Origin: Eledone cirrhosa
Taxonomy: Eukaryota
Assembly: GCA_964016885.1 (NCBI GenBank)
Contig: OZ024740.1
Coordinates: forward strand, 22,568,001 to 22,632,000
Direction of reading: 5' to 3'
DNA length: 64,000 bases
Position numbers and translations under genes: made by a program. Shown one piece after another: positions 3,567-57,430 of this stretch (positions are counted from its first letter, which is position 1; every line of letters starts with the position of its first letter). A model generated the notes under the pieces. The model had not been told where the DNA came from. It worked only from the letters and a program-made list of their open reading frames with translations, and made no database searches.

Positions 3567-6500
3567 CTACAGGCTGATATAGAGAGAAGACCCACTCACT
3601 CTGGCCATTCTCCCTACTTTCACCCACCTTTCATAAAACTTGCTGGGGTAGAGCACCTCTCTCTCCATTCTGATCCTTCTTTTAAAATGGTATTTGAAAA
3701 AGGGGACCAGTTGTTGGCCGGAGAGAAAGGTGTCTGACCGCAGCCCTTTCAGCCTCGTCCACCATACAACTTCTTTAGCCATGGCTATCACACAGAGAAA
3801 AACCGCCTCTCCTTCGTTTTTGAAAGGGGGAGGCGGTTTGATCGTGACAATGGACTCGGTGGTCAACCGGATTGGTCCCACCCTCGACAGTAGTCGTTCC
3901 ACATAGCCCCACAGGTCAGCAATGCCTGGGCAGTGTACGAATGCGTGCGCAACGGTTTCGTCATCATGCACGCATCTCGGACAGATCTTATTCAAAGGAT
4001 CTCTACCCAGGCTCCCATGCCTGTGGAGCTTGTCTCGAACGGGTAGAGCCCCTCGGTAGCACTGCCAAGCCAGGGACTTTTGGAAGTTGTCCATCGGTCC
4101 AGGGCCAAACGTCCTACCGAACAGACTGGCCAGTTCATCTTCCTCCATGCCTAGAGCTTCTCCGAGAGCATCGTCGCACCTGCTGCGTACCAACCCTCTA
4201 TAGAATATCGAGGTGGAGTCTCCACTGATTGCCGGGTCCGCTTTCCAGAGGGCCGTGAGCGCCTGGGCACATTCAATGTGCCAGTCGCCCAGTTTTCTCG
4301 GTCTTTGCTTGACCCAGGATTGCAGCTCGGTGAGCGAGACGAGTCTGGGAAAGGCTCGCCTCACAAACGGGGCCCACACCGGTTGACCGGTGAGGAATAC
4401 CGGGAGGAGCCGTAGCCTTAATGCGTGTTTACGCATCTGTAGCCACGGCATCCCCAGCCCTCCTTTCTAAGGGTGTTGACAGCAGATGGATCTCCTCACC
4501 AAAGGGGTCCACTTGTTCCAAAGAAATTGGAACAGCGCGCACTCCATTTTGGCGAGTCTTTTCACTGGGCAAGGCACGACGGTCAAGCGGTAGTAGATGA
4601 CGGATGCTATATAAGTATTCGCCACCTCCGCTCGACCTTTCAGGGATAGTTTGCACTGGGCCCACTTCTGGGTGAGTGCAAACACCCTGGCCGTTACCTC
4701 GTTCCAGCTTTTCTCCACCTGGAGGTCTGGTCCGAACCAGACCCCGAGCAGCTTCACCGGGCCCTCCGTCCAGCGTCCGACGACGTCGTTGGAGGGCATC
4801 GGTTTGCCTCTCCATGTTCCAAGTTGCAAACCGACGGACTTGTCCCGGTTCAGCTTGGCTCCTGTAAACCTTTCATATTCCTCCAGTAAGGTGCCGATCT
4901 CACCGATTTGCGAGGTTTTCGTCACCATTACTGTCACGTCATCGGCGTAGGCCGACGCCACTTTCTGCAATCCCGGTTCCAAAGGGATGCCCTGCAACCG
5001 CTCCAACTTCCGCAGTAGTCGCTCAAGAGCCAGCACATACAGTAGGGAGGAGAGAGGGCATCCCTGTCGGATGGATCGCATGATTTGGAACGGCTCCGAG
5101 AGGTGGCCGTTCACCTTGACCCTTGAGCAGACGTTGCTGCTGTGCATCGCAGCAATCCAACCCCTGAAAACGGGTCCGAAGCCTGCCGCCGCGAGCACCG
5201 CATCCAGGTAACGATGGTCAACCCTATCGAAAGCTTTAGATTGATCCAAGTTGATCAGGGCCCCACCAAAGCCGGGTTCATTCCCTACCCTCTCTATGAT
5301 GTATCGCATAAGGTGGAAATTGTCGTGAATGGACCTGGACGGGATTGCGCATGTCTGCGCTTCTCCCACCAGGTTTCCAACGACAAGCGCCAACCTCTTC
5401 GCTAACACCATGGCCAAAATCTTTAACTCTGTATTTAGCAGAGTTATGGGCCTGAAGTTACTTATGTCATCCCCCTTGTTCTCATCCTTCCTCACCAGCG
5501 TAACTACGCCCTTGGTCACAGAACTGGGAATTCTCCCGTTCTGCTGCCAGTTGCAGTAGACCGCTTCGAGGATATCGGAGAACAAGTCCGGCATCGCTAC
5601 ATATAGCTCGTATGGTAGACCATCGAGACCCGGGGATTTGCGTTTGCCGCATTGGCTCAGCGCCGCCCCTATCTCAGCAGCTGAAATCGTCCTTTCGCAG
5701 GACTTCGCCTCCGCGTCCGAGAGGCGCGGCAGACCGTCGAGGTATGGATTGAAATCCATAGTCTCACCCGGCGCGCCGCCCCTCTCGAACAGTCGTGCAA
5801 AGTGCCGCTGAAAGGCCGCACACATCTGCCCAGGTTCAAGGATCACACGCCCATCCTGGTCCTTCAAAGACCGAATCGTGGACTTGTTCCCACATTTTGC
5901 CTCTGTCACTCGGGCCCAGCTCACAGCTTTGGCTCCCTCATTACCCAGAGCACGTATTTTACTCCTGACAACGCAGCCTTCATGCTTCACCTCAAAGAAC
6001 TGGTCTAAGGCCATTCTTGATGCCAGCACGCCGGCTACATTGCCACTCCTAATCGCCTCTTCTACTCTATCTACTAATTCCCTTTCCGTCTTGTTCCTAT
6101 CCCTTGCTAATTCCTGACTAAAACCTATCGATTCTATTCTAATTGCTCTCTTAGGAGAGCTCCACCACCTGTTGTTGATAATTGCCCCTGTCAAACTCTG
6201 CTTAACTAACGTGCTAATCCGTTTACTGTAAGCTTTGCTTGTCGGTGAGGACAAGTTCAGCTTCCAGTAACCGGGTCCCTGTCTATGGGTTCTATCAAGG
6301 TTGGCTATGCAGGTCACTAACTTGTGATCCGAATAGTCAACCATGAACATTTTTGGACAGCTAAATGTGTCCCTATCCTTCTCTCTAACTAGGACCCTAT
6401 CTAGGTACGACCTAGATGTTCCGCTGAGATTGGTCCACGTCCATAGTGGTACAGTCGGAAAATCTAGTCGATATCTATCGGCCAGGTCAAATCGGCCGAT

Positions 6501-7004
6501 TAACCTTTTGAGGCTTTTACACCTCCCTCTATTGGCACATGCCCCTACATAGTCCCAACGTGCATCCAGGATACCATTCCAGTCCCCCACTAAAAGCAAG
6601 GAGCGGGACGTTCCCAGAAAAGTTCCCAGACGTTGGAAGTATTCCGGCCGTGCTGCCCAAAAAGGGGCGTACACAGCTATTAGTCTAAGGGCTCCACTTT
6701 CACTACTGCCGACGTCTAAAACCACCAGTCGACCCTCTGGGTCCACGTGCACCTTCTGTATGGCGAGGCCCAGGTGTTTTCGCAGCAGAACGACAACTCC
6801 ACCCCCACCCCCCGGTTGACAGAGAGATGCGAAGATCTCAAAGTCGTTGAAGAGGGGCGCCAGTTGGTGCTCGCTGCTGATCCTGGACTCGCAAATAGCC
6901 GTGACATCCATTCTATGCGACCTGAGATCATTTAAAAGTTTGCCTTGTTTCCAAGACAGTCCCAGGCCGCGTACATTCAGACACCCAACTCTTATATCAG
7001 CCAT
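3567..7004 (-). pseudogene. ORF2 (APE endonuclease, RT, zf-RVT), 1145 codons with one in-frame TAG at 4467-4469
   Basis: LNVRGL, GDWN, YLDR, YSDH (APE); KSPGLDG, FRPITLLN, LDQSKAFD, RQGCPLS, YADD (RT); CPRC..ETVAHAFVHC; the 845-aa and 294-aa ORFs are in frame through CQHP*KGGLGMP. Confidence 0.95.
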
Positions 7005-7009
7005 GTTGG

Positions 7010-8626
7010 TTAAAAGAGGAAGGACCTACCTGTTCGGCTCCTGAGGAGCAGGTTGCACAATATCCATGGGCGTATTGGAGGGGTTGTTTGGTGGGTGTTG
7101 TTCTGTGGCGGAGTGGGGGTATTTGGTGAAGTGTGGGTGGGGAAACGTTTCAAGAGGACGCGGTTATAGGGTCGAGTCCATGTTTTCCCCACGTCCTCAG
7201 GAAAGTTCTCTCTTAGTTTTGCATAGGTGTCCATTGGGAGTCTTATCATTTTTAAATGCGGTTTGTTGGCCGCGCTTGCAAAGAATTGCCCTTCAGTTTC
7301 CACCGAAGGGTCTTTGTGTATTGTTTTTACTAGTTCTTTGTTATTTGTGTTAATGTATGTATACTGTTTTATTTGTGTTGTGTTTGTTTGTTGTTCTTGT
7401 GTGTGCTTACGTTTTGTTGTATGTGTTATGTTTTGGGGTGGGGCGGATTTTGTTTGTTCTGTTTGTTTTGTTTTTGTTGGTGGTTGTGTGTTTGTTTCGT
7501 TTATGTTCGAGTGGTGCTTTCTTTTTTTCCTTTTTACAGGTTGGAAGGGTCCCCCCTCTTCGTAACTAGGTGCCGTTTCAGCTGGGTCCTCGTCCGTGCT
7601 GTCGGGTAGTGGTGTATTTTGGGGTTTTGTTGTGTTTGTGTGTGTTTTTGGAATTGTTTTGGGTGGGGCCGTGTCTTGTGTTATTTTTCCGTGTTGTTTT
7701 TGTTGTTGTTGTGTTGGTGGAGGTGGTGGCGGTGGTGGTGTGTGGGGTGTAGGCAAAAGAGCCTTTTTTTTTGTCAATTGAGGACAGGCAGCCCTTAGAT
7801 GACCCCTGCTTGAACAGTAGTAACATATGGGCCTCCTACCCTCGGCTGAAATGTACATAAATGTTTCTCCATCGAGGGACACCCTCTGTGGTATTCTAGC
7901 TATTCGTTCTGGTCTCATTTGGACCAGAACCTCCACGCTCAAACCGCCGAAAACGTCTGTTGTGACTTCTCCTACTGAGAGGATTCCGTCCTCGTCTTCT
8001 AAAAATCCTGTTAGTACCCAGGAAATGCATGCATTTGGCCGGATTCCGGAGACCCTTATTTTCTGCGTTCTTTTCCCTAAATATGTGGGGAAAAATGTGT
8101 GTAGCTTGGAAACAATTGGCGCCACAGAGTATTTCCTGGCCGTCAATTGATCCTTCATTAGCACCGTTATATTCCCATAGAGTGGCCCTTTTTGTATGAA
8201 CGATATATCACTCCACACATTTTTTAGGACCAGCTCAATTTCTTTTTGTGATAATTGAGCTGGTTTCCTTGTTATGTTGGAAATTGTTCTGAAAGATATC
8301 GTTCTTAGCATCGTGTCTCTTTTGATTTCTTGTGGGGAGGTGATTGTGAAGTCTCCTCCTTCTTTGAAAGTTACATACTGTTTTGCTTCCTTCATCTTTT
8401 CTCTCAGAGTTGTAATGTCCAGTTGCTTGCAGGTCTGTGTTTTCCGGACCGCCTGTGCAAAGGAGGCACCAGTAGTGGGTTCGCTTTGTTTGGTGTTATC
8501 GTTATTTTTTCCTTGGTTGGTGTTGTGACTATTGCTGTTATTGTCATTGTTGTTTTTGTCTGCGTTTATGTGACTTTCTGGGTTTTCACCCATTTTTACA
8601 AATTTTCTTTTAATTCCGTGTTCCAT
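7010..8626 (-). CDS. ORF1 gag-like nucleic-acid chaperone with one zinc knuckle (538 aa)
   Basis: CYYCSSRGHLRAAC (CX2CX4HX4C); SFAQAV motif; Pro/Thr-rich tail; stop 5 nt before the ORF2 ATG. Confidence 0.9.
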   Translation of the reverse strand: MEHGIKRKFVKMGENPESHINADKNNNDNNSNSHNTNQGKNNDNTKQSEPTTGASFAQAVRKTQTCKQLDITTLREKMKEAKQYVTFKEGGDFTITSPQEIKRDTMLRTISFRTISNITRKPAQLSQKEIELVLKNVWSDISFIQKGPLYGNITVLMKDQLTARKYSVAPIVSKLHTFFPTYLGKRTQKIRVSGIRPNACISWVLTGFLEDEDGILSVGEVTTDVFGGLSVEVLVQMRPERIARIPQRVSLDGETFMYISAEGRRPICYYCSSRGHLRAACPQLTKKKALLPTPHTPPPPPPPPTQQQQKQHGKITQDTAPPKTIPKTHTNTTKPQNTPLPDSTDEDPAETAPSYEEGGPFQPVKRKKRKHHSNINETNTQPPTKTKQTEQTKSAPPQNITHTTKRKHTQEQQTNTTQIKQYTYINTNNKELVKTIHKDPSVETEGQFFASAANKPHLKMIRLPMDTYAKLRENFPEDVGKTWTRPYNRVLLKRFPTHTSPNTPTPPQNNTHQTTPPIRPWILCNLLLRSRTGRSFLF

Positions 8627-8954
8627 GTTTCTTTTTCAGAAGTGAGGAGGGAAGACTTTGAGCCTTGTGCTTCTAGCTTCTCTGTATCACCTTTCTTAGG
8701 GGGCGTGGCTTTCTCGTTAGGATGAGATGTGAAAATTCCGTCCATTTCTATTAGTTTGCCGTAATAAATTTTTAACTGGAAAATTCGCCCCAAAAAGGGG
8801 CGAAAATAAATAAACTCAAAGTTTGACGACCAAGGCAAGGGGTTAACGTATATTACAGTATAACAAATTAATCAAAACTCACTTTTGAGTAAGTAAATCC
8901 AACTCGGTAGCCGAGCTTGTTCACACACGTCAACACACGTCTCTCGTATACGAG

Positions 8955-10089: not shown

Positions 10090-10158
<69 letters not shown>

Positions 10159-10168
10159 AACCAGTAAG

Positions 10169-10262
10169 ACCCCGACAGCTGAGCTCAAGCCGTTTCGACG
10201 GCTAATTCTGGACTAAATGAAAATTTATCCTGGTATTTAAATAGCCGATCTTCTCAAGGGGT
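10169..10262 (-). ncRNA. Type-I hammerhead motif with U3:A8 core (UUGAGAA)
   Basis: ACCCC-UUGAGAA-GA(U)CGGCUAUUU...AAUUAGCCGUC-GAAACGGCUUGAGCUCAGCUGUC|GGGGU. Confidence 0.75.
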
Positions 10263-10719
10263 AGTTCCATATATGGTCAAAGTGATTGTCAAAAATCAGT
10301 AGTAATTCTGTGGTTGCAAATTAGTAGGGGAGATGGTGGCTAAACCTGCCAGTAGGAGAAAGAGGGGAGGGGTGGAGTAGACCCAATCAAGCGTTGGTAG
10401 TGCCAGCTACAGCTGGACATGAGGTCAAAGAAGATACAGGGGAGGGGGAGGAGGAGGAAGTCGGAACGGTAGGTAGAACAATGGGGGGTAGAAATAGGAA
10501 AGAAAAAATACTGAGAGTGAAGAAAAGAAAATAAGTGTAAAGAAAAAAGTAAAGTAAATTAAATTTTACGACCTAGGTGTCAGGCTATTGTTAGGCTAGA
10601 ATAAAATAAAGAAAGAAAGAAAGAAGTAAAGAAATAAATAAATAAATAAATAGCGAAATAAGTAAAAGAACTAGGTGGGACGGAATAGGCAAGGACCCTT
10701 TTAAGAGGTGTAAGTACAC

Positions 10720-17344: not shown

Positions 17345-18755
17345 ATATATAATATATAAGAACAAAAGATGGTTAAAAGAGTTCCATGTATTTTATTATG
17401 CGCATTTCAAAAACAAATATCATCATGCAATAATATTTGTGTTTTCATCAGATAAAATAGGAAGACATGATATGAAGGTTAAAAAACACTTGTGTCTAGT
17501 GCAGTTTTAAATCAACATATGAAAAGTAGTTTTAGATTGATGTGTGATATTCGGAAAAATATTTTTTTTTTGAGGGGTGGGGGTGGAAAGGATGAAAAAG
17601 AGGAGGAGATGAGAGTAAAAAGTGGAGAGGGAGGAGTATAATGAGGAAGGATGAGATAGGAGGAGAGATGGGTGATAGAGAGAGAGAGAGATAGCTTTTA
17701 TAACTGAGAAAAATATATTGTTTTACATAGAGAGGTTGAAAACCGTTGGAAGATAATGTATAAATTAAAAGAATTTGAAAATTAACGAAGAGAAAAATAA
17801 TGTAAAGTTAAGGTTTGTATATTGAAGGGTTTAATAATATGTGCGATGAAAAGAAAATGTTAATATGTATTAAGAATAATATTTAAGGGTTTAATAATAT
17901 GTGCGATGGAAAGAAAACGTTAATATGTATTAAGAATAATATTTAAGGGTTTAATAATATGTGCGATGGAAAGAAAATGTTGATATGTATTATTAAAAAG
18001 AACAACAAGTAATGTAAGTAAGGATATATTGTGAGATGAACATGAGTAAGTTAGATGAAAGGGAGAAAGAAATAATGAATTGAGGATGAATAATCTAACG
18101 TCAAAAAATTGTTTATGTTTACGAAGGATTTTTACAAGGTGATATAGAGTAAGAATGTATTGTATTGTGTAATAATTGTTTCTATGTTAGGCAACAGTGA
18201 GAAAAGGTACAGATTAGGGGTTAGACATTAAAAGAAAAAGAGAAGAAAGGGAAAATGAAGAAAGGGAAGTGATAAATAGGAGTGATATAGAATGAGTAAC
18301 AAGTATTATATAATGTATAATAAATAACTTTGAATAAAGGTAGAAAGATGGGTATATTTTTAAAGAAGTATATATATATGTGCCTTTGAGAAAAAGATTC
18401 TAAATTGATAAAGTTTTGGATATTAGCTGTATACTTTGTGGAATGTTTTGTGGAATTTATGCAAGCAGAGAGAAAACAAGTCAGTGCGTCTATTTATTAT
18501 AGAATCTAAATTAGATATAATGGTAAATTTTTCATTTAGACAGAGATTGCAAATCTTGGATAGAGAACTGTTCAAGTATAGAGACGCAGAAGAAACCTTT
18601 TTCCAAAATATGCTAAATACATGGAACTCTTTTAACCATCTTTTGTTCTTATATATTATGTATACTCCAGTCCTACAAACTGTAGAGTGCTTCTTATCCG
18701 ATATCTGCATTGCATTGCTTTATTGTACTACAATAAAACTCACCTCCAACATATA
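17345..18755 (-). mobile_element. Truncated PLE (Naiad-like endonuclease C-terminus) with inverted terminal segment
   Basis: CNLCLNEKFTII...INRRTDLFSLCLHK (18423-18620); 18618-18660 is the inverse of 17348-17390; (TA)n on both sides. Confidence 0.85.
17390..17458 (-). ncRNA. Type-I hammerhead
   Basis: AUUUUAU-CUGAUGA-long stem II-GAAAUGCGCAUA|AUAAAAU; copies at 40406-40470 (-) and 40532-40598 (+). Confidence 0.85.
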
Positions 18756-40362: not shown

Positions 40363-40373
<11 letters not shown>

Positions 40374-40721
40374 AGAACAAAAGATGGTTAAAAGAGTTCC
40401 ATGTATTTTATTATGCGCATTTCAAAAACATATATCATCATGCAATAATATTTGTGTTTTCATCAGATAATCATTGATTTAAAACTGAACTATCCACAAG
40501 TGTTTTTTAACCTTCATATCATGTCTTCCTGTTTTATCTGATGAAAACACAAATATTATTGCATGATGATATTTGTTTTTGAAATGCGCATAATAAAATA
40601 CATGGAACTCTTTTAACCATCTTTTGTTCTTATATATTATGTATACTCCAGTCCTACAAACTGTAGAGTGCTTCTTATCCGATATCTGCATTGCTTTATT
40701 GTACTACAATAAAACTCACCT

Positions 40722-40725
<4 letters not shown>
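40363..40725. mobile_element. Palindromic non-coding derivative of the 17345 PLE tail with two HHRs
   Basis: 40363-40470 is the inverse of 40534-40640. Confidence 0.88.
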
Positions 40726-41342: not shown

Positions 41343-41387
41343 TGTTACACCTCTATTCTTTTAAATATATATATATATATATATATA

Positions 41388-42275
41388 CATTTCGTTTCTG
41401 AATTTGTTTAGCAAAATTCTTTATCTGAAAACGTGTGTTGAAACCGATATTGTTATACTTTGGGAGGGTCATGTTGCCAATAAGGAACACACGCACCACA
41501 GCTTTCACTTCAATTTATTATAAATTAAATTTATAAATTTAGGAATTTATAAATTTCCGGTTGGTTGGTTCCACAACCAGATGATTGTTCATATATTGTC
41601 AAAGTTCTTTCGTCACACATTCTGTGACCTCTTCAGTGACTGGGGATTCTTTACTTTGTTTTTGTGCCTCTCCTTTGTTCTGTCCTACGCTATCTTGTTT
41701 TTGTGTGTGTTGTGTGCTTAGTTTGCGCATGTGTTACATCCGGGTGTCTGTGTGTGTTTATATTTGTTTATTTATATGTTACTGGCTGGTTGTTTGTTCT
41801 ATGTGTGTGTGTGTTTTCATTTTGTCCTTAACTGTAAGTTGTGATGTTGCTGTTCCATTCATGTTTTCTATTTAATTTTGGTTGGAATTCATTTATGTTT
41901 ATTGCCTCTGTGATTTGTCTACACATTGCGTCTTTTCTGTGTGTAGATTCTATTTTTATTTCTATGTTCTCTAATTTACCCTTATGTTCTATTTTAGTAT
42001 GTTGGTGGAGTACAGATGATTCTTTACTATCTTGAAGATCTCGCCAGTGTTCATTTATCCGTTCCCCTATACTACGAGCTGTCTCACCTATGTACACTAT
42101 ATTCTTATCTCTACATTGTCCTTCAGTACATCTCATGCTATATACTACATTTCTAGTTTTACAGTTAATAAGGGGGCTTAATTTACAGATTATACATTTC
42201 TTATCCATACAGAGATGTCTTTGAAAAGGGCATGTCTTGCTAATAAGTGTTTTTATGGAGGTACCAGGTACTTTT
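41388..42275 (-). mobile_element. Truncated PLE of a third endonuclease type (possibly Nematis-like) with HHR at 41598-41640
   Basis: CKTRNVVYSMRC...YIGETARSIGERINEH...RQITEAININ...LNRKHEWN (41828-42289). Confidence 0.88.
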
Positions 42276-42339
42276 TTGATGCTTATCAAAGCTAACTATT
42301 CCCAACTACTCCTCCTGTTTGCTTAATTAATTTAATATT

Positions 42340-42881
42340 CAGCAAACAGGGGACATAAGCATCATTTGATAAGCATAAAAAAATGCGAAACAGAGCTCTG
42401 TCAGCTTTATCTCCCCTGTTTGCTGAAAATTAAAGTAAGTGAGACTGTCACTACTCTAAAACAATAGCATAAGGTCTTCGAAATGCTTTTAATTAAGCAT
42501 ACAGTGCATTGCAAAATACACTATATATACATTCATATATATAGCGCTATTTCAGAGCACCAATTCTAATTTTCCATATCTGCTTGACCGGCAACCGCTC
42601 TGTATAATCAGTTCCTGATTATTACTAGAATTCTATAAGAATCAAACATTCATGATTTTCAGCAAACAGGTGGAGTACTTGGCTTTGATAAGCATAAAAA
42701 ATGCGAAACAGAGCTCTGTCAGCTTTATTTCCACAGTTTGCTGAAAATTAAAGTAAGTGAGACTGTCACTACTCTATAACAATAGCATAAGGTCTTCGAA
42801 ATGCTTTTAATTAAGCATACAGTGTATTGCAAAATACACTATATATACATTCATATATATATCGCTATTTCAGAGCACCAA

Positions 42882-42887
<6 letters not shown>
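42340..42887 (+). mobile_element. 318-bp tandem retrozyme-like unit (~1.7 copies) with U3:A8 HHRs at ~42362-42406 and 42681-42724
   Basis: GGCU-UUGAUAA-GCAU-A5-AUGC-GAAACAGAGCUCUGUC|AGCU; predicted cleavage sites 318 nt apart. Confidence 0.78.
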
Positions 42888-42940
<53 letters not shown>

Positions 42941-43113: not shown

Positions 43114-43479
43114 ATGTATATACAATTGTGCGTGGGTATATATATATATAATTGAAAATGACCGAAAAAACAAACACAGGAGGCAATTGTACACAGTTAT
43201 ATTAGGTTCACGCATGGTGGAAGTAAAAGTACGTGGTCGTAGCGTATGTGTGTTGACAGTGTATATAAGTGTTGTTTGTTCGTGTATGTGTACATGTGTA
43301 GTTACGTGTGTGGTTATATATATCACTAAAAATACTGCTATATATATATATATGTAATCTGAGCTTTTCGAATATTAATAATCATATTCGATTCGTTTGC
43401 AATTATGCAAACAGCCTCTTTTAAGCCATGTCAGTAGAATGAGCCCCTCATTCTTGCTCTTGTGTTGGCATGTAAACAG

Positions 43480-43528
43480 AACTGCAGACACTAATGTTTC
43501 TGGGTGATTCCATTTCATCAGTGCAGTT
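43480..43528 (-). ncRNA. Type-I hammerhead between diverged inverted arms (43353-43465 and 43568-43682)
   Basis: AACUGCA-CUGAUGA-AAUGG..CCA-GAAACA-UUAG-UGUC|UGCAGUU. Confidence 0.8.
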
Positions 43529-43743
43529 TACTGTTCACTTGCCAACTGTCAGACCTAGTGAAAATATATGACACAAGAGCAAGAACGAGGAGTTCATTCC
43601 AGTCATTTAAAATTGAGGCTTGTTTGCATAATTACAAACGAATCGAATATTAATAGTAATATTCGAAAAGCTCAGATTACATTTATTGTATTTACTCCAT
43701 GTAGAGTGATACATTTTTTTTTGATAAAATTAATTAATTTATT

Positions 43744-43782
<39 letters not shown>

Positions 43783-43785
43783 TTA

Positions 43786-44603
43786 AAGCCGGAAGATGGG
43801 TATATATTGCTGATGAGATGTAATAACATCGAAACTAGTCCAATATTCCTGTCTGGCTCTCTGGAGAATAGAGGAAATGTGTTTCCTTGAAAACCCGTAT
43901 GACTCTAAAACCCGGTTTGTCTGTTTGTTTACATACAGACTAGCTGGACACTCACAGTAAAGTGTCCAGTGAAACACTCAGTACATGTACATATGTATGC
44001 ATGTGTGTATTTATATGCATACTAATATTTCCGTATACATATGTAGATGTACACTTTTAACTTAATTGTTTAAGCGTCAGTCATACAAAAGTGAGTTAGA
44101 AGCGAAACGAAATTTAATTTCGTTTCGTTATTTGTTTTTATTGTTTCGCTGAACCGGTGCGTACAATGACTCACGTTCTATGCAAATTGGTCTGCCCACT
44201 ACTAATTTTCATAGAAAAAGCATATAACGATATGTGCTTTTACGATTCTCTAGAGAAGCCGGAAGATGGGTATATATTGCTGATGAGATGTAATAACATC
44301 GAAACTAGTCCAATATTCCTGTCTGGCTCTCTGGAGAATAGAGGAAATGTGTTTCCTTGAAAACCCGTATGACTCTAAAACCCGGTTTGTCTGTTTGTTT
44401 ACATACATACTAGCTGGACACTCACAGTAAAGTGTCCAGTGAAAAACTCAGTACATGTACATATGTATGCATGTGTGTATTTATATGCATACTAATATTT
44501 CCGTATACATATGTAGATGTACACTTTTAACTTAATTGTTTAAGCGTCAGTCATACAAAAGTGAGTTAGAAGCGAAACGAAATTTAATTTCGTTTCGTTA
44601 TTT

Positions 44604-44607
<4 letters not shown>
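43786..44607 (+). mobile_element. 470-bp partial tandem with canonical HHRs at 43804-43846 and 44274-44316
   Basis: AUAUUG-CUGAUGA-GAUG-UAAUAA-CAUC-GAAACUAGUC|CAAUAU twice; near-identical copies; TA flanks. Confidence 0.9.
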
Positions 44608-45222: not shown

Positions 45223-48200
45223 GGATACAATTTATAGTTATGTATATTTTAAACTATAAACAGGGAAGGTCAGTAATTTATTACTACCTTATTACCAGTA
45301 AGATAAATAGCTCAATGTAAGAACATCAATTGTTCTACAGAGCAGTTATATAGGATTCACAAGGATCAAAGCTATGTTCAAAGCCTTTATTCACTTACAA
45401 TTGTTTCATCCAAACCTAGGCTTGGAGTCTTCGGAGGATTTTTCAATACTTGTACATATAATTGACCTCCTATCCAACGCAAGAGACATACAGATACATA
45501 TATATATATACTGATGTACAGTGGAGTGACATATATTATACTATACTATATTTGTACAGCAATTCAAATTTAAAATCAAAATTAAAATACATGCGGCAGA
45601 TAACACAGATAATGCAAGAGGATAGTTCGATAATCAGATCTAGTAGATAGTGTATGCGTTAGTCATACATGGTGCATGCAAGTGTGTCTCATTTATATAC
45701 GAGTATTGTGTGGCAAGGTGTTACATGTAATACAAGCACTTTAAGCGGGTAAGCAAGAGTATTATGGTGGTTGTAGTGGGAGGGTATTTTTTGTATAGAT
45801 AAAAAAAGTATGTGTGCAGAAAAAGAAAACGAAAAAGAAAAAGAAAAAGAAAAAGAAAAAGAAAAAGAAAAAGAAAAAGAAAAAGAAAAAGAAAAAGAAA
45901 GTTATAGTTTTCGCATCCACCACCATTTTCACATTCAGAAAAAGCAAGTTATAGTTTTCACATCCATCACATATGTTACAATAAGTTCGTATTGAATCTT
46001 TGATGTGGTAAATGATTGTAACGTATTGAGGCTCAGTGTTATTTAATCCATATTTATAGAATAGGTTTTTTCTGCTGCGAGAATTTACAGTGGTTTATTA
46101 TCCGGAAGTAGGTGTGTAATTAAGGGGAGTTAATGCGTAAGGGGAAGTAACTAGCTGATTCTCCTAACTAAATTCATTGTTCTAACATACATTATATGGT
46201 GCCTCAATTGAGTCCCTTATATAAAAGGTTATATATTTATATTTAATTTTAAATACAGTCTACTCTATCATAATGTATTAAAGGTATCTATAGGAAGTTG
46301 ATTACTCCTTATTATATATCGCTATAATTGAATTTCCCACACAAAGTGCTATATCTTTATATCAAAATTCACTGTAAATACAGTCTACTCTGAAAACATA
46401 TCAAAGCACCAATTAGAATGTTGTCAACATAGCCCCTGGTAAGCTATGGAGCAGCGTACGGCTGTTTGCATGATAAAATCAAATACATCTCTTCGGTAAA
46501 CAAATACATCCCTCATTTACAATGTCATTAATCTATCCATCAAGTTATACATGCATATATAATTCATATATAATTCATTGCACCACCCTACATATAAGTT
46601 AGACAGATTCCTTATGTTAATAAATTAATCCTATATATATCTGATGTTATTACTCCATACATTTAATTACAGATGCATATATAATTCACTGCCGTATCTA
46701 GTATTTAAAGTTTATAAAGACTGTATTATATTTCAATCCCTATATAATTATAAGTAATTAAAAGTAATTATATTAAAAGTTGGTGTTTATGAGGATATTT
46801 CTAGGGTATAAAGTTATAGATAGATAGAATGATTTGTGTCGAGGAAAGGGTGGATCAGAGAGTGTGGTGTAGTGGTGGAAGGCATTCCCTTGGGGTGTGG
46901 TGTTAGAAGCGGTGATGGGTTCAAGTCTGACATTGTTATATATTGGGTTTAAAGCTTTGGAAGGAGTGTCGGAAGCGGTGCTGGCACGACGCAAACACTT
47001 CCGATTTTTTTATTAAGGAGGTTAAGGTTTGAAAAGATTATAGTATGGGTCTCTAGTAGACAGAGGTTACAGAATTTATTAGGTGGTTTGTACGATGCCG
47101 CCTTACCTATCACTTCCCATTGAAGTGTATATGATCTGTTTCTAATTTTCAGATAGTGTATATAGCTTGATAGTGAAGTGGAGTTGGCTAGACTGTGTTT
47201 TTTGAAAGAATGGAGATGTGAGTTGTATCTCGTTTTGAAGCAGTTTGAAGTAGAGCCTATATAGGTTTCAGAAGAGTTGCTAGTTCTGACCGTGCATGAG
47301 TAGATGATGTCCTTGACTAAGCAGTTTTTACCTAGAGGGCAGGTTCTATTAGATCTATAGTTACATTTATTTTGCATGTTAACCTGTCGGTTATTATGTT
47401 GTGTAGAAGTCTGGTTGCTAGGTATTGCATTATGCTATGAAGGTTGTCGCTCCTAATGCTATTGATTTCATTATTGTTATTACTATTATTACTATTGATA
47501 TCAGGGTTTTCAGTTATTACGTTGTTTTGAAAGTTTACCCCCCGCTGTGTTTTATTTTGTTGAAAGTAAGTATTAATCTTTCTTTTATTGCTACTAGCTA
47601 TGTGGTATGCTATTTTAGGCGTGGTAGAGTAGGATATTTTAATGATGTTTTTATTTATAAGACTATGGTACTTGTGGCCAGATGGGAAGTCTTTATCCAG
47701 GAGTGAGAAGAAAGCCTTAGGTAGGTTGGTAGAGACGTTTAGATTGAAATGGGGGTTGAAAATGTATTAGTTCTTCTTCTATTTTTGTTTTTTATATCTG
47801 TTGAGTTGTTTCCGTTTATGGTATTTTGGTGTCTTCTCTGGTGTGAGTTACGTTTGTTGCTACCCTTCGTATTAGTGTGTGTCTGGTTATTACTCTTATT
47901 ACTATTTTTCCTCATGGACATATTGTGAAAAATAATGTTGTAGCTATGTGTTTTTATAGGTAGGAACTCAATCTCATTATTATGGCCTGATCTAGCTAAT
48001 GCCTGATTATAGTATTGTGAGTTTTTGCTAAATATGGTTTCGTTATAAGATAGATTAGCGATTCTATTGGATATTCCTTTAGAGATAGAGTTTAATAATG
48101 ATCTAGGGTGGTTAGACTTGGTATCTACGTAAATTAATTTTTCGTTAGGTTTATGGAATGGTGTATATATTTAAGAGTCTAGGTAAAGGGTAGCATCCAG

Positions 48201-49905
48201 GAAGTTAACGTTTTTTGTGTTTTTGTCTATGGTGATACTTAGGTTATAGTTTTTGAAAGTTTTATGCAATAGTTGCCTAGTTCTTTCTATATTAAATTTG
48301 TTATAGTCTATAAGGAGTAATGCATCGTCGCGGTACAAACCACCGTTGAGGTATGGTAGGTCCTTATGGATTTCGTTTAGTAGGTATAGGCCCACCAAAT
48401 CAGTGACCTGCGCCGAGTCACTAGATCCCATGGTTATGTCAAAGTTGTTATGAGTTTCCTTGCGGGTCCATAACTGATCTTCAAAAGTAATTACGGTTTT
48501 ACGGGCCGCAAGTATGACATCAATCTGGAGTCTAGTCAGGTCACTATTGTTCATGGCCATAATTAGTGCCTTATTTAATAGGATAGGGGAAATTGAGGTG
48601 TTGTATGAATTGATATCAAACTGAATAATTTTTTATTTTTGTTCTCTTTGATATCCTTAAACCATTCAATAACTTCCCCCGTATTTCTCCACTGTTTAAG
48701 GTGTATTTTGTGTTTAATCTGTGGGATGATTTTATCTAAAATTTTCTTACTGATAATGCCAATGTCAGACTTGGAAGGGCAGATTAGTCTAATAGAAGGG
48801 TTACTAATGAAATCCTCCTTATGGTCCTTCAGAGAGAATCTAGAGGGGGTTTGGATGTGTTTGCGTCGTGCCAGCACCGCTTCCGACACTCCTTCCAAAG
48901 CTTTAAACCCAATATATAACAATGTCAGACTTGAACCCATCACCGCTTCTAACACCACACCCCAAGGGCATGCCTTCCACCACTACACCACACTCTCTGA
49001 TCCACCCTTTCCTCGACACAAATCATTCTATCTATCTATAACTTTATACCCTAGAAATATCCTCATAAACACCAACTTTTAATATAATTACTTTTAATTA
49101 CTTATAATTATATAGGGATTGAAATATAATACAGTCTTTATAAACTTTAAATACTAGATACGGCAGTGAATTATATATGCATCTGTAATTAAATGTATGG
49201 AGTAATAACATCAGATATATATAGGATTAATTTATTAACATAAGGAATCTGTCTAACTTATATGTAGGGTGGTGCAATGAATTATATATGAATTATATAT
49301 GCATGTATAACTTGATGGATAGATTAATGACATTGTAAATGAGGGATGTATTTGTTTACCGAAGAGATGTATTTGATTTTATCATGCAAACAGCCGTACG
49401 CTGCTCCATAGCTTACCAGGGGCTATGTTGACAACATTCTAATTGGTGCTTTGATATGTTTTCAGAGTAGACTGTATTTACAGTGAATTTTGATATAAAG
49501 ATATAGCACTTTGTGTGGGAAATTCAATTATAGCGATATATAATAAGGAGTAATCAACTTCCTATAGATACCTTTAATACATTATGATAGAGTAGACTGT
49601 ATTTAAAATTAAATATAAATATATAACCTTTTATATAAGGGACTCAATTGAGGCACCATATAATGTATGTTAGAACAATGAATTTAGTTAGGAGAATCAG
49701 CTAGTTACCTCCCCTTACGCATTAACTCCCCTTAATTACACACCTACTTCCGGATAATAAACCACTGTAAATTCTCGCAGCAGAAAGAACCTATTCTATA
49801 AATATGGATTAAATAACACTGAGCCTCAATACGTTACAATCATTTACTACAAACGTTACAATCATTTACTACAAACATTCAATACGAACCCATCGTAACA
49901 TATTC
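45210..49905 (-). mobile_element. Naiad-like PLE (RT plus GIY-YIG, frameshifted) with ~1.03-kb inverted duplication of its 3' tail
   Basis: SLKDHKEDF, RLICPSKSDIG, ITMGSSDSAQVTDLVG, LYRDD, NFLD, IIY..YIGST, CNLCLLE; 45972-46998 is the inverse of 48857-49903; HHR-like motif at 45394-45436. Confidence 0.92.
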
Positions 49906-50511: not shown

Positions 50512-50834
50512 GGATAATGGCTGAGAGAGGGAGAGATAACGTGCGTATTCTCTATTTCCTCTTTTTCGTCTGAAGAAGGACTTGTGTCCAAAACGTTAAG
50601 ACTCTTCTCCTAATATTTCAAGAGTTAAACTAATATATCTCTTCATGAAACTGCCGTTTGCTTTGATATTTCTGTTTGTGTATATACATTAATCCATTTC
50701 TTTATATCGAACAGAAACCAAACACTATACACACACGCAAATGCATGCGCAGAGAAGACAAAAATAAATAAATAAATAAACAGATAAAATAAAAAGGGCG
50801 TAGACATACAATACAACAGGAGGAACATAATAGT

Positions 50835-50876
50835 ACCACTGATGATGTTGCAGATGTGCAACGAAAGAACTTTGTT
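50835..50876 (+). ncRNA. HHR motif in a PLE tail related to 41598
   Basis: CUGAUGA-U-GUUGC..GCAAC-GAAAGAACUU; stem II covaries with GUCAC/GUGAC. Confidence 0.65.
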
Positions 50877-51060
50877 AGACTATATATATGTATTTATATC
50901 TGCATTTTTGACCGTTGGTCAGTCAATGATAAACATTGAGGACCAAATGAATTAACTGTGGAGATATAAAAGATGCAGAAGCGAAAACCAACCAAACAGT
51001 GAGTGTGTTCTGTTATTATTTCTGGCAATGTCATTACAACAATATGACCCTCCCAAGCAT

Positions 51061-51096
<36 letters not shown>

Positions 51097-51099
<3 letters not shown>

Positions 51100-53455
51100 T
51101 ATAGACATAGAATATTCGAAAATATTCTGTATGTTTATAATAAACATTTTGAAGACCTAATCGCTATAGAATAGAATACGTCACGTATTACAATTAGATT
51201 CTCGATAAAAGCAAGGGAAGTAAGTCTACGCGTTTCATTCTTGTTAGAATTCATCAGGACTACATATCCAGTGCTTTCATCGAGAATGACACAGCTAGAG
51301 ACTTATAGAATACTTAGCTGTGTACAGGAACTGGTTTGAAAGAGCGGTTGCCGGTCCGGCAGAAATTAGAAATTGGAATAAATGCTCTGAAATAGCGATA
51401 TATATGTGAATATAGACATAGAATATTCGAAAATATTCTGTATGTTTATAATAAACATTTTGAAGACCTAATCGCTATAGAATAGAATACGTCACGTATT
51501 ACAATTAGATTCTCGATAAAAGCAAGGGAAGTAAGTCTACGCGTTTCATTCTTGTTAGAATTCATCAGGACTACATATCCAGTGCTTTCATCGAGAATGA
51601 CACAGCTAGAGACTTATAGAATACTTAGCTGTGTACAGGAACTGGTTTGAAAGAGCGGTTGCCGGTCCGGCAGAAATTAGAAATTGGAATAAATGCTCTG
51701 AAATAGCGATATATATGTGAATATAGACATAGAATATTCGAAAATATTCTGTATGTTTATAATAAACATTTTGAAGACCTAATCGCTATAGAATAGAATA
51801 CGTCACGTATTACAATTAGATTCTCGATAAAAGCAAGGGAAGTAAGTCTACGCGTTTCATTCTTGTTAGAATTCATCAGGACTACATATCCAGTGCTTTC
51901 ATCGAGAATGACACAGCTAGAGACTTATAGAATACTTAGCTGTGTACAGGAACTGGTTTGAAAGAGCGGTTGCCGGTCCGGCAGAAATTAGAAATTGGAA
52001 TAAATGCTCTGAAATAGCGATATATATGTGAATATAGACATAGAATATTCGAAAATATTCTGTATGTTTATAATAAACATTTTGAAGACCTAATCGCTAT
52101 AGAATAGAATACGTCACGTATTACAATTAGATTCTCGATAAAAGCAAGGGAAGTAAGTCTACGCGTTTCATTCTTGTTAGAATTCATCAGGACTACATAT
52201 CCAGTGCTTTCATCGAGAATGACACAGCTAGAGACTTATAGAATACTTAGCTGTGTACAGGAACTGGTTTGAAAGAGCGGTTGCCGGTCCGGCAGAAATT
52301 AGATGAAAGCACTGGATATGTAGTCCTGATGAATTCTAACAAGAATGAAACGCGTAGACTTACTTCCCTTGCTTTTATCGAGAATCTAATTGTAATACGT
52401 GACGTATTCTATTCTATAGCGATTAGGTCTTCAAAATGTTTATTATAAACATACAGAATATTTTCGAATATTCTATGTCTATATTCACATATATATCGCT
52501 ATTTCAGAGCATTTATTCCAATTTCTAATTTCTGCCGGACCGGCAACCGCTCTTTCAAACCAGTTCCTGTACACAGCTAAGTATTCTATAAGTCTCTAGC
52601 TGTGTCATTCTCGATGAAAGCACTGGATATGTAGTCCTGATGAATTCTAACAAGAATGAAACGCGTAGACTTACTTCCCTTGCTTTTATCGAGAATCTAA
52701 TTGTAATACGTGACGTATTCTATTCTATAGCGATTAGGTCTTCAAAATGTTTATTATAAACATACAGAATATTTTCGAATATTCTATGTCTATATTCACA
52801 TATATATCGCTATTTCAGAGCATTTATTCCAATTTCTAATTTCTGCCGGACCGGCAACCGCTCTTTCAAACCAGTTCCTGTACACAGCTAAGTATTCTAT
52901 AAGTCTCTAGCTGTGTCATTCTCGATGAAAGCACTGGATATGTAGTCCTGATGAATTCTAACAAGAATGAAACGCGTAGACTTACTTCCCTTGCTTTTAT
53001 CGAGAATCTAATTGTAATACGTGACGTATTCTATTCTATAGCGATTAGGTCTTCAAAATGTTTATTATAAACATACAGAATATTTTCGAATATTCTATGT
53101 CTATATTCACATATATATCGCTATTTCAGAGCATTTATTCCAATTTCTAATTTCTGCCGGACCGGCAACCGCTCTTTCAAACCAGTTCCTGTACACAGCT
53201 AAGTATTCTATAAGTCTCTAGCTGTGTCATTCTCGATGAAAGCACTGGATATGTAGTCCTGATGAATTCTAACAAGAATGAAACGCGTAGACTTACTTCC
53301 CTTGCTTTTATCGAGAATCTAATTGTAATACGTGACGTATTCTATTCTATAGCGATTAGGTCTTCAAAATGTTTATTATAAACATACAGAATATTTTCGA
53401 ATATTCTATGTCTATATTCACATATATATCGCTATTTCAGAGCATTTATTCCAAT
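51097..53455. mobile_element. 311-bp retrozyme-like tandem array forming a ~2.35-kb palindrome with 8 HHRs
   Basis: Period 311; inversion at 52302/52303; AGUC-CUGAUGA-AUUC-UAACAA-GAAU-GAAACGCGUA|GACU at 51223, 51534, 51845, 52156 (-) and 52322, 52633, 52944, 53255 (+). Confidence 0.92.
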
Positions 53456-53461
53456 ATATAT

Positions 53462-54457
53462 ATATATAAAGAATTAGTATATCTACCAACATATATATAC
53501 AGTTGCATACCTATGCTAGCAAATATATAGGTTTTTGTCTTAGTATCTTTATGGTTCAATGCAAGGGGATGCAGAACAATTATATGAAAGACGTAAAATA
53601 AGAAAATTATAAAAATTAACTTACTTACTAAGATTTCACTCCAACTAATTAGTTTCTGAAAGGGAATAAACATGGTTTCCGAATGGAACATGGAGAATAC
53701 CTTTTGTCACCAGGCAGTCAATTCTCAGCTAAGTTCCTAGGCGATGCGTGGACACAGGGAACTTATACAAAAACAATTCAGTGGATGGAAACAAGCGAGC
53801 GAGGACTAAATTCCAGGACTAAATTCCAGGACATTTCCATTCGGAAACCATGTTTATTCCCTTTCAGAAACTAATTAGTTGGAGTGAAATCTTAGTAAGT
53901 TAATTTTTATAATTTTCTTATTTTACGTCTTTCATATAATTGTTCTGCATCCCCTTGCATTGAACCACAAAGTTACTAAGACAAAACCTATATATTTGCT
54001 AGCATAGGTATGCATCTGTATATATATGTTGGTAGATATACTAATTCTTTATAATTATCTCCAAATTATTTTGTTGAGCAAAAATTTGCCAAAACTACTA
54101 CTATAGTTCATAGTAATAGTCCGGCTACTGTCTTATTAACACCCCACTCTTCACTGATTAACCTCGATGTCACGTGATTGATTCTTTTGAATTTGCCACC
54201 GACCAAGTAGGCAGTGATTTTTTCAATGTCCTGTAATTTAGTCCTCGCTTGCTTTTTTCCATCCACTGAACTATTTTTGTATAAGTTCCCTGTGTCCACA
54301 CATCGCCTAGGAACTTAGCTGAGAATTGACTTCCTGATGACGAAAGGTATTCTCCATGTTCCATTCGGAAACCATGTTTATTCCCTTTCAGAAACTAATT
54401 AGTTGGAGTGAAATCTTAGTAACTAAGTTAATTTTTATAATTTTCTTATTTTACGTC

Positions 54458-54465
<8 letters not shown>
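53462..54465. mobile_element. Palindromic partial-tandem ~525-bp unit with HHR at 54329-54409 (+) and a mutated copy at 53638-53718 (-)
   Basis: ACUUC-CUGAUGA-CGAAAGG...CCUUUCA-GAAACUAAUUAGUU|GGAGU. Confidence 0.82.
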
Positions 54466-56774: not shown

Positions 56775-57430
56775 TCAAATAAGAATATTTTCGAAACAGC
56801 GAGTGGATTTGAAATTATTAGAAATGTTAGCTACGCCGTATTTTGACTAAAGAAATTAAAGAAATTATTTAGCCTGATAGTGGGGTTAAGAACCCTCGGA
56901 GAAATGGAAAAAGATGAGTATTGACGTACATGGGGGTCGAACCCACATCTTTGGTTATCCGGACCACTGTGCTACCATTTACACCAACACATCACCCGTC
57001 TTTTTCAATTCAAATTAGAAGCTATAAACTTAGCGACTCTAATGTCAAGTAAGAATATTTTCGAAACATTTTCGAACATTTCTCCGAGGGTTCTTAACCC
57101 CACTATCAGGCTAAATAATTTCTTTAATTCCTTTAGTCAAAATACGGCGTAGCTAACATTTCTAATAATTTAAAATCCACTCGCTGTTTCGAAAATATTC
57201 TTACTTGACATTAGAGTCGCTAAGTTTATAGCTTCTAATTTGAATGGAAAAAGACGGGTGATGTGTTGGTGTAAATGGTAGCACAGTGGTCCGGATAACC
57301 AAAGATGTGGGTTCGACTCCCATGTACGTCAATACTCATCTTTTTCCATTTCTCCGAGGGTTCTTAACCCCACTATCAGGCTAAATAATTTCTTTAATTT
57401 CTTTAGTCAAAATACGGCGTAGCTAACATT
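56775..57430. repeat. ~270-bp unit in inverted plus partial-tandem arrangement, containing a tRNA-like cloverleaf
   Basis: Minus arm 56775-57068, plus arm 57075-57430; period 270. Confidence 0.88.
57260..57331 (+). tRNA. tRNA-like sequence or pseudo-tRNA (inverse copy at 56922-56993)
   Basis: GATGTGT/GTACGTC acceptor with G-U pairs; TGGTGTAAATGG A box; GTGGG-TTCGACT-CCCAT T arm; atypical loop CCGGATA. Confidence 0.55.

Follow-up and report, generated by a model that had tools for sequence, protein, structure and literature searches.

Metazoan non-long terminal repeat (non-LTR) retrozymes, described from coral, mussel and axolotl, are ~300-nt low-GC tandem units that carry a type I hammerhead ribozyme and no open reading frame (ORF); those of the axolotl type have a short palindromic stem III, and the elements co-occur with Penelope-like elements (PLEs) and have been proposed to follow a cycle from circular RNA to tandem complementary DNA (cDNA) (PMC7229834; reviewed in PMC7761336). 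More recently, retrozymes have been proposed to be non-autonomous PLE derivatives (Li, Clavereau, Pollet 2026, bioRxiv 10.64898/2026.07.22.740005). Hallmarks of PLEs include an inverted arm, a tail that is present at one end and a bias towards microsatellites (PMC8557442), and in vitro a purified PLE protein starts at two internal RNA sites flanking the tail and extends both target strands (PMC11167929). In this study, we analysed a 64,000-nt stretch of the Eledone cirrhosa genome (assembly GCA_964016885.1, contig OZ024740.1, positions 22,568,001 to 22,632,000 of the forward strand; hereafter the window), which contains two tandem repeats of the same general kind, with units of 318 nt (A) and 311 nt (B).

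The results suggest that A and B are probably subfamilies of one protein-free retrozyme family, whose monomers are likely to circularise and to serve a PLE reverse transcriptase (RT) as template for repeated copying that starts on each cut strand of a (TA)n target. We are more confident of the retrozyme status of the family than of this model as a whole. The model is carried by the homology of the units, their copy number, their covarying stems, the back-to-back arms in which they sit in (TA)n, the two end points ~24-33 nt apart, and the single haplotype found across both arms.

An earlier note on this DNA had placed the two units in one family, and the comparison bears this out: blastn aligns them at 69% over 422 nt (E 3.7e-31), their global alignment score is 275 against a mean of 96 (sd 11, maximum 142) for 500 mononucleotide shuffles, and they are 76% identical over 178 nt outside the ribozyme arm. 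The blocks and stems it had named are all found at the positions it gave, including the enclosing stems (42655/42736 in A, 52607/52681 in B) and the hairpins AGAATATT-TTCG-AATATTCT of B at 52766 and AGTGTATT-GCAA-AATACACT of A at 42821, the latter with one mismatch in the earlier A copy (42503). The interval it had assigned to A does hold a homologous unit, but the opening ~25 nt (42335-42358) are an inverted junction piece and not a variant stem strand. At this locus, ~1.65 A units form a sense arm on the plus strand (42365-42887) that ends at the end point we call the tail; two short inverted A pieces on the minus strand (42273-42326 and 42327-42358) make up the inner junction, and the (TA)n target tract occupies 42887-42920. 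The B insertion consists of a left arm of 3.9 units on the minus strand (51087-52303), which ends at end point 1 in (TA)n (tract at 51065-51096), and a right arm of ~3.7 units on the plus strand (52302-53455), which ends at the tail. With longest stop-free stretches of 46 aa in A and 59 aa in B, the units do not code for protein. Both fold better than each of 100 dinucleotide shuffles (z -5.4 and -3.8), and the predicted fold is branched and not a rod. Members of the family are tandem low-GC units of 310-330 nt, inside the 150-450 nt expected of retrozymes, and the dispersal of copies over many contigs with distinct flanks marks them as mobile.

Every unit contains a type I hammerhead, in which the core and stems I-III were called with a core/stem descriptor and have the support of covariation. 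Neither hammerhead reaches the Rfam cut-off, with HH9 scores of 20.5 and 17.8 bits against a gathering score of 52; at gathering scores Rfam returns only two tRNA-like matches in the window, and weak hammerheads appear at E up to 10. The A hammerhead, enclosed by a long stem at 42655-42748 on the plus strand (the 20.5-bit match), has the core UUGAUAA (U3-A8) at 42685, a GCAU/AUGC stem II and the palindromic stem III CAGAGCUCUG, and is predicted to cut after GUC at 42720. In the first A copy, which is partial, the hammerhead core is retained (42366-42402, plus strand), and the junction takes the place of its 5' stem I strand. The B hammerhead reads CUGAUGA...GUA, with cores in the right arm at 52326, 52637, 52948 and 53259; its stem III is the palindrome CGCG only, and it is predicted to cut as a dimer. 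Differences between the units in the hammerhead stems and core, to which the note had also pointed, are borne out by a core switch in the tertiary pair, which is U3-A8 in young A and in the still older subfamily O0 (units of ~330 nt, with a stem I resembling that of B) and C3-G8 in old A and B. The same U3-A8 core covariation occurs in the Cercyon PLEs of Schistosoma (PMC4209133), whereas in Eledone both states alternate among subfamilies of one lineage. Monomeric cleavage of A may account for the shorter A arrays, but older B copies with the weak stem III (L225, L248) are short too, so age may explain the difference.

The claim that the stems are under selection at the RNA level, with compensatory changes, is supported by a tree-aware test. 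The 990 full units comprise 162 distinct ones, reduced to 109 by merging at 98.5%; 43 were aligned first and the remainder added, and 38 pairs, named from the hammerhead model and from the hairpins of the earlier note, were scored by parsimony on the tree of the 109 units (RNAalifold missed stem I and the outer enclosing stem). Internal branches carry 22 double compensatory, 22 single pair-keeping and 12 pair-breaking changes, against 0, 54 and 115 on tip branches, where the changes reflect decay after insertion. In 300 nulls in which the same columns were re-paired, doubles averaged 1.4 with a maximum of 5, and cells changed on both sides numbered 224 against 70 when shuffled, a count reached by none of 500 shuffles. 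The enclosing stem accounts for eight of the doubles and the two hairpins that lie outside the ribozyme arm for three; the others are in the hammerhead, one of these being the switch from C3-G8 to U3-A8. The UUCG-to-GNRA tetraloop swap, which had been singled out as part of the same pattern, is incidental: the loop is not conserved, GCCA, ACCA, CUCG and UUAA-type loops occur elsewhere in the family, and the loops of other subfamilies are mostly closed by U-A.

Paired changes could in principle also arise by hairpin-templated (quasi-palindrome) correction during copying, without selection on an RNA, since template switching in long inverted repeats can fix both arms and most of the doubles do lie in such repeats. 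We consider this explanation highly improbable, because C3-G8/U3-A8 is a lone tertiary pair that differs between subfamilies at least twice, because a long-range A-U/G-C change discussed below spans ~200 nt in a 4-bp helix, and because G-U pairs are kept on internal branches, among the 22 single pair-keeping changes, as RNA pairing predicts. Selection for pairing in the RNA itself is therefore the reading we adopt.

The family is large and graded in age. A shared 16-mer has 18,504 matches across the 3.0-Gb assembly (control 0), a lower bound on the block matches of the family; 16,968 B-type hammerheads occur genome-wide, and a canonical CUGANGA core upstream of AGGTCTTC marks 750 older copies (control 1). 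Copies of B are nearly identical, the best-matching young A copies are ~95% identical, and identity falls to ~85% in old A and ~75-80% in O0. These graded identities indicate a series of amplification waves, and the earlier view of an old family thus holds as a graded set of subfamilies. The further view that the units are viroid-like replicons of their own kind, replicating from RNA to RNA with only occasional capture as DNA, is hardly credible. Their size, hammerhead and stable fold would suit such an agent, and replication from RNA to RNA is among the possibilities considered for mussel retrozymes (PMC7229834). However, neither A nor B has an antisense hammerhead core, the branched fold does not resemble a rod, and the family consists of thousands of target-primed DNA copies in age-graded subfamilies. 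The missing antisense core and the PLE-type marks of target-primed integration leave the viroid-like reading unsupported and fit non-LTR retrozymes.

How the family spreads is recorded in the anatomy of its insertions. The copies lie within (TA)n and consist of two arms placed back to back; 92 of 144 loci are complete two-arm insertions. Seventy-five of these have one TA end and one tail end, in three both ends are of one type, and in 14 one end could not be assigned, so that 75 of the 78 assignable loci follow a single pattern in which the tail end lies ~24-33 nt beyond the end of the internal TA stretch. In A, the internal TA-rich stretch runs to 42862 (end point 1) and is followed by a 25-nt tail to 42887 (end point 2), both on the plus strand (42841-42887), and the two points are the putative RT start sites. 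A TA run directly follows the tail end in 84 of 89 cases and the TA end in 67 of 81. In the TA-end arm, 303C>T is usual in the terminal unit, which would be expected had these bases come from the target DNA. An inverted 5' arm with a tail at one end only, and a (TA)n microsatellite as target, are what a PLE-mobilised element should show. The inverted 5'-truncated arm, the one-end tail, the (TA)n or AT-rich targets and the two internal RT starts are all shared with the PLEs Poseidon PAc (PMC11167929) and Neptune/Naiad (PMC8557442), and the two end points match the two internal start sites demonstrated for the PLE enzyme in vitro (PMC11167929). The tail of ~24-33 nt compares with 30-40 nt published for PLEs and 58 nt in a local Neptune-like family. 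Unlike PLEs, the units have no ORF, their hammerheads are of canonical type and not minimal, and each arm may hold many perfect rounds.

The contents of the arms point to one monomer copied many times. In a sample of 30 B loci, both arms share a haplotype in 28, with 17 haplotypes in all and an expectation by chance of about 0.10; in the two discordant loci, the mismatch consists of one or two changes within a partial arm. Only 42 non-fixed differences occur in 98,676 bases of these loci, and minor unit haplotypes are singletons and do not form runs. The variant 41G>T has 26 matches genome-wide, 20 of them in one insertion (10 per arm) and six scattered over five places, and no source array for that insertion exists in this assembly. 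The simplest account is that one monomer was copied ~10 times from each strand; the pattern points to repeated copying of a single monomer, which was likely a circle.

These observations also bear on the nearest competing account, in which the PLE enzyme copies a long linear RNA, produced by read-through transcription of an existing array and left uncleaved, from two primings; no circle would then be needed. Several facts favour it: an anole PLE uses unprocessed RNA in vitro (PMC11167929), stem III of B is weak, and some arms start exactly at end point 1, although such arms were selected by pattern and do not give a rate. Inner junctions fall at the cleavage site in seven of 170 cases, with no enrichment, which fits a ligated circle but fits uncut RNA equally well. 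We nevertheless think a linear template unlikely. Young B arms reach 16.5 units and both arms of one insertion total ~25, more than the longest single arm among the 30 loci could supply, the 41G>T insertion lacks a source array, and arrays copied from linear transcripts would shrink each generation unless a step from monomer to multimer existed somewhere. A 340-nt self-closing contig appeared in three of four runs of unspecified kind; a tandem repeat gives the same result, and the contig is not used as evidence.

We therefore return to the circular monomer, from which a complete cycle can be proposed. A tandem transcript would be cut by its hammerheads into monomers, or for B as a dimer, and the monomer ligated to a circle. 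A PLE RT-endonuclease would bind the invariant core of the RNA, its docking site, and the (TA)n tract would be nicked. One target strand would then pair with the internal AU stretch to prime synthesis, the other strand priming at the tail point; rolling synthesis would give several rounds per arm, and the two cDNAs would be joined at variable inner points. The changing stems would act as a scaffold, free to drift as long as pairing is kept.

The division between a fixed core and drifting stems is visible in the rates of change, since the number of internal-branch changes per column is 0.14-0.29 in the tail and GACC blocks and ~1-2 in the ribozyme arm. In A, the invariant core at 42553-42602 (plus strand) is predicted to form a CAGAGC/GCUCUG helix around a small hairpin with the loop GACC (42586-42589), and the plus-strand segment at 42790-42840 comprises the AGGTCTTC block, an AUGC/GCAU hairpin and the tetraloop hairpin (42821-42840). 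The loop GACC could pair with GGUC (42791-42794), ~200 nt away, as a candidate pseudoknot of H-type topology. O0 has GGCC/GGCC in place of GACC/GGUC, and of 32 in alignment A2 the changed pair is A-U in 20, G-C in eight, G-U in two and unpaired in two. This may be a pseudoknot resting on one compensatory event; of 15 helices pairable in all six groups, five show compensatory change, and two of those are chance-like. The invariant blocks had been suggested to be promoter or RT-recognition signals. The second role is likely, because they surround the two fixed insertion ends, and the first is unsupported: neither strand of either unit has an exact match to the consensus patterns of the RNA polymerase III A and B boxes that a short interspersed nuclear element would carry. 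PAc, for its part, requires RNA to ~55-60 nt past its start site (PMC11167929), and the invariant block ends 58 nt past end point 1. A more specific and decidedly tentative proposal is that a pseudoknotted docking core lies beside the AU template stretch on a 310-nt circle and that a PLE RT dimer rolls round it from both cut strands. It draws support from the change of GACC/GGUC to GGCC/GGCC in O0 and from the private variant fixed in both arms. Telomerase RNA likewise has a template-pseudoknot core, and the PLE reverse transcriptase is telomerase-related. If true, the proposal would explain the tandem, inverted, one-tail form of PLE insertions in general and provide a minimal natural substrate for studying them.

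Another possible view is that the units are ordinary pseudo-LTRs (pLTRs) or tails of an as yet unfound autonomous PLE, with no RNA life of their own. Vertebrate retrozymes do group with PLE pLTRs (bioRxiv 10.64898/2026.07.22.740005), and at one locus, L018, a PLE ORF and an A unit share a strand, the ORF ending ~180 nt upstream of the unit. The sole close relative of the L018 segment, however, continues with other sequence. A PLE protein match lies within 700 nt at 12 of 143 non-redundant loci and, judged by coordinates, none leads into a unit, in a search with seven query proteins that missed L018. No homology to the pLTR of an autonomous PLE was found among the PLEs of the window or the 143 loci, and the units contain no ORF with RT and GIY-YIG domains such as an autonomous PLE would have. 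Partner searches by variant patterns returned mostly point mutants or A/B junctions (17 of 45 and 70 of 91 matches inspected), and a PLE near L240 lies across an assembly gap. As direct unit-to-unit joins recur up to 16 times with no ORF, and the subfamily series evolved in this ORF-free tandem form, we judge an origin as mere PLE ends to be improbable, and continue with an independent retrozyme family that borrows a PLE enzyme.

Several points weigh against that conclusion. The RNA, its cleavage and the circle are all deduced from genomic DNA, the anole PLE inserts in vitro without needing hammerhead cleavage (PMC11167929), and no ORF-bearing partner sharing the core was found in the searches just described. 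In the covariation analysis, nine of the 22 doubles fall on the single long B branch, two of them hinging on the alignment of the short stem III; the GUGAC hairpin was kept outside the score, its B equivalent being shifted (six internal breaks); and a tree-blind scan flags 686 column pairs, which indicates that such counts mean little without the tree. Junctions of mixed families (B with a 470-nt family in L269, B with family D in L281) imply that both arms need not always derive from one molecule. The B sample is biased, since identity to the window unit guided the choice of 12 of its 30 loci and one variant that of six, and assembly polishing could exaggerate the similarity of units within an array.

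The kind of element is thus known, a non-LTR retrozyme, and it is the family that appears to be new, with unusually direct genomic evidence of how such elements spread. Circles as templates for tandem or more-than-unit copies have already been proposed (PMC7229834, PMC4209133), and circles were demonstrated in PMC7229834, whereas the Eledone circle is predicted from genome sequence. The back-to-back arms, two start points, (TA)n targeting and monomer bottleneck, on the other hand, are read here from insertions, unlike in PMC7229834, whose main text does not use the word 'inverted' and whose supplement may show related anatomy. The retrozymes of bioRxiv 10.64898/2026.07.22.740005 share the PLE link and the dispersed monomers, dimers and multimers; that account covers mostly vertebrates, is based on co-occurrence and pLTR trees and favours local array amplification, while the arrays in Eledone look born as multimers and have no homologous pLTR that we could find. 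The literature covered, which left most subscription papers and Repbase outside its scope, contains no account of this family or of mirrored multi-unit retrozyme arrays with twin start sites. By itself, one more family is modest news, and its value is that of a test case. Prior support for a circle template and a PLE helper came, in the papers compared, from co-occurrence and trees. In this young and abundant family (~17,000 B units), the two start sites, both strands and the bottleneck of a single monomer can all be read from the insertions, and age-graded subfamilies separate a fixed docking core from freely covarying stems. With a 310-nt RNA, both the mechanism of PLE insertion and the part played by the ribozyme become testable.

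The window also holds PLEs and other elements in TA tracts. Immediately beside the A locus, on the minus strand (41387-42270), lies the 3' end of an autonomous Neptune-like PLE, with the end of a GIY-YIG ORF, a minimal hammerhead (41600-41636) and the 58-nt tail, joined to an inverted A piece. Its family shows the same two-end-point anatomy as the units. As a helper it is not convincing: its tail is 58 nt long, it shares no homology with the unit, and both ends at the A/Neptune junction are tail ends, so this is no clean twin event. Pfam gives no match for the full Neptune-like ORF at E 0.01, a C-terminal piece matches GIY-YIG, and look-alikes of the ORF with RT, HTH_animal and GIY-YIG are listed in the Atlas. 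Across the genome, the C-terminus of the Neptune-like PLE has 35,077 first-look candidates, and an open Neptune-like frame of 1257 codons lies at L141:2218-5991 (minus strand; G000:C3:199.33 Mb), with an inverted terminal repeat directly upstream. A second Neptune-like family is represented by its 3' end at 50520-51065, which includes a minimal hammerhead-like motif and is inserted in the TA tract that also holds the B array. Between ~1-kb direct repeats at 45900-49900 is a PLE-like element on the minus strand, with RT and endonuclease pieces at 46949-48982; TATATATCGCTAT and AGCACCAATT occur in the plus strand of the repeats, which may be coincidence.

Of the two families that form mixed junctions with B, the first is a ~470-nt tandem repeat with a type I hammerhead at 43780-44607 (plus strand), between TA tracts, with cores at 43810 and 44280 and an Rfam HH9 score of 32.9 bits; it matches A/B weakly (E 0.004), and one copy is joined to the B arm in L269. 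Family D, a piece of which is joined to the B arm in L281, is a hammerhead-bearing two-arm element in TA tracts at 40370-40724, with cores at 40538 (plus) and 40466 (minus), and occurs also near 17451 (minus). Inverted-arm elements beside TA tracts at 53460-54460 (with a CUGAUGA motif near 54335) and 43350-43720 are likely further PLE-mobilised repeats. An inverted two-arm element at 56800-57430 ends in TA and carries a tRNA-like sequence in each arm (57260-57331, plus, 42.4 bits; 56922-56993, minus, 40.0 bits; Rfam tRNA), and is possibly a tRNA-derived repeat moved by PLE-type machinery. A short TA-associated repeat (GACCCCGACGGCTGAGCTCAAGCCGTTTCGACG), often in inverted pairs, is present at 10155-10300, 14800, 20780, 25660 and 57500, and read antisense it contains a hammerhead-like core (descriptor match at 10257, minus). 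Finally, a near-complete element that appears by eye to be LINE-like lies at 3567-8635 on the minus strand, with a 541-aa ORF1 and an 852-aa endonuclease-RT-like ORF2.
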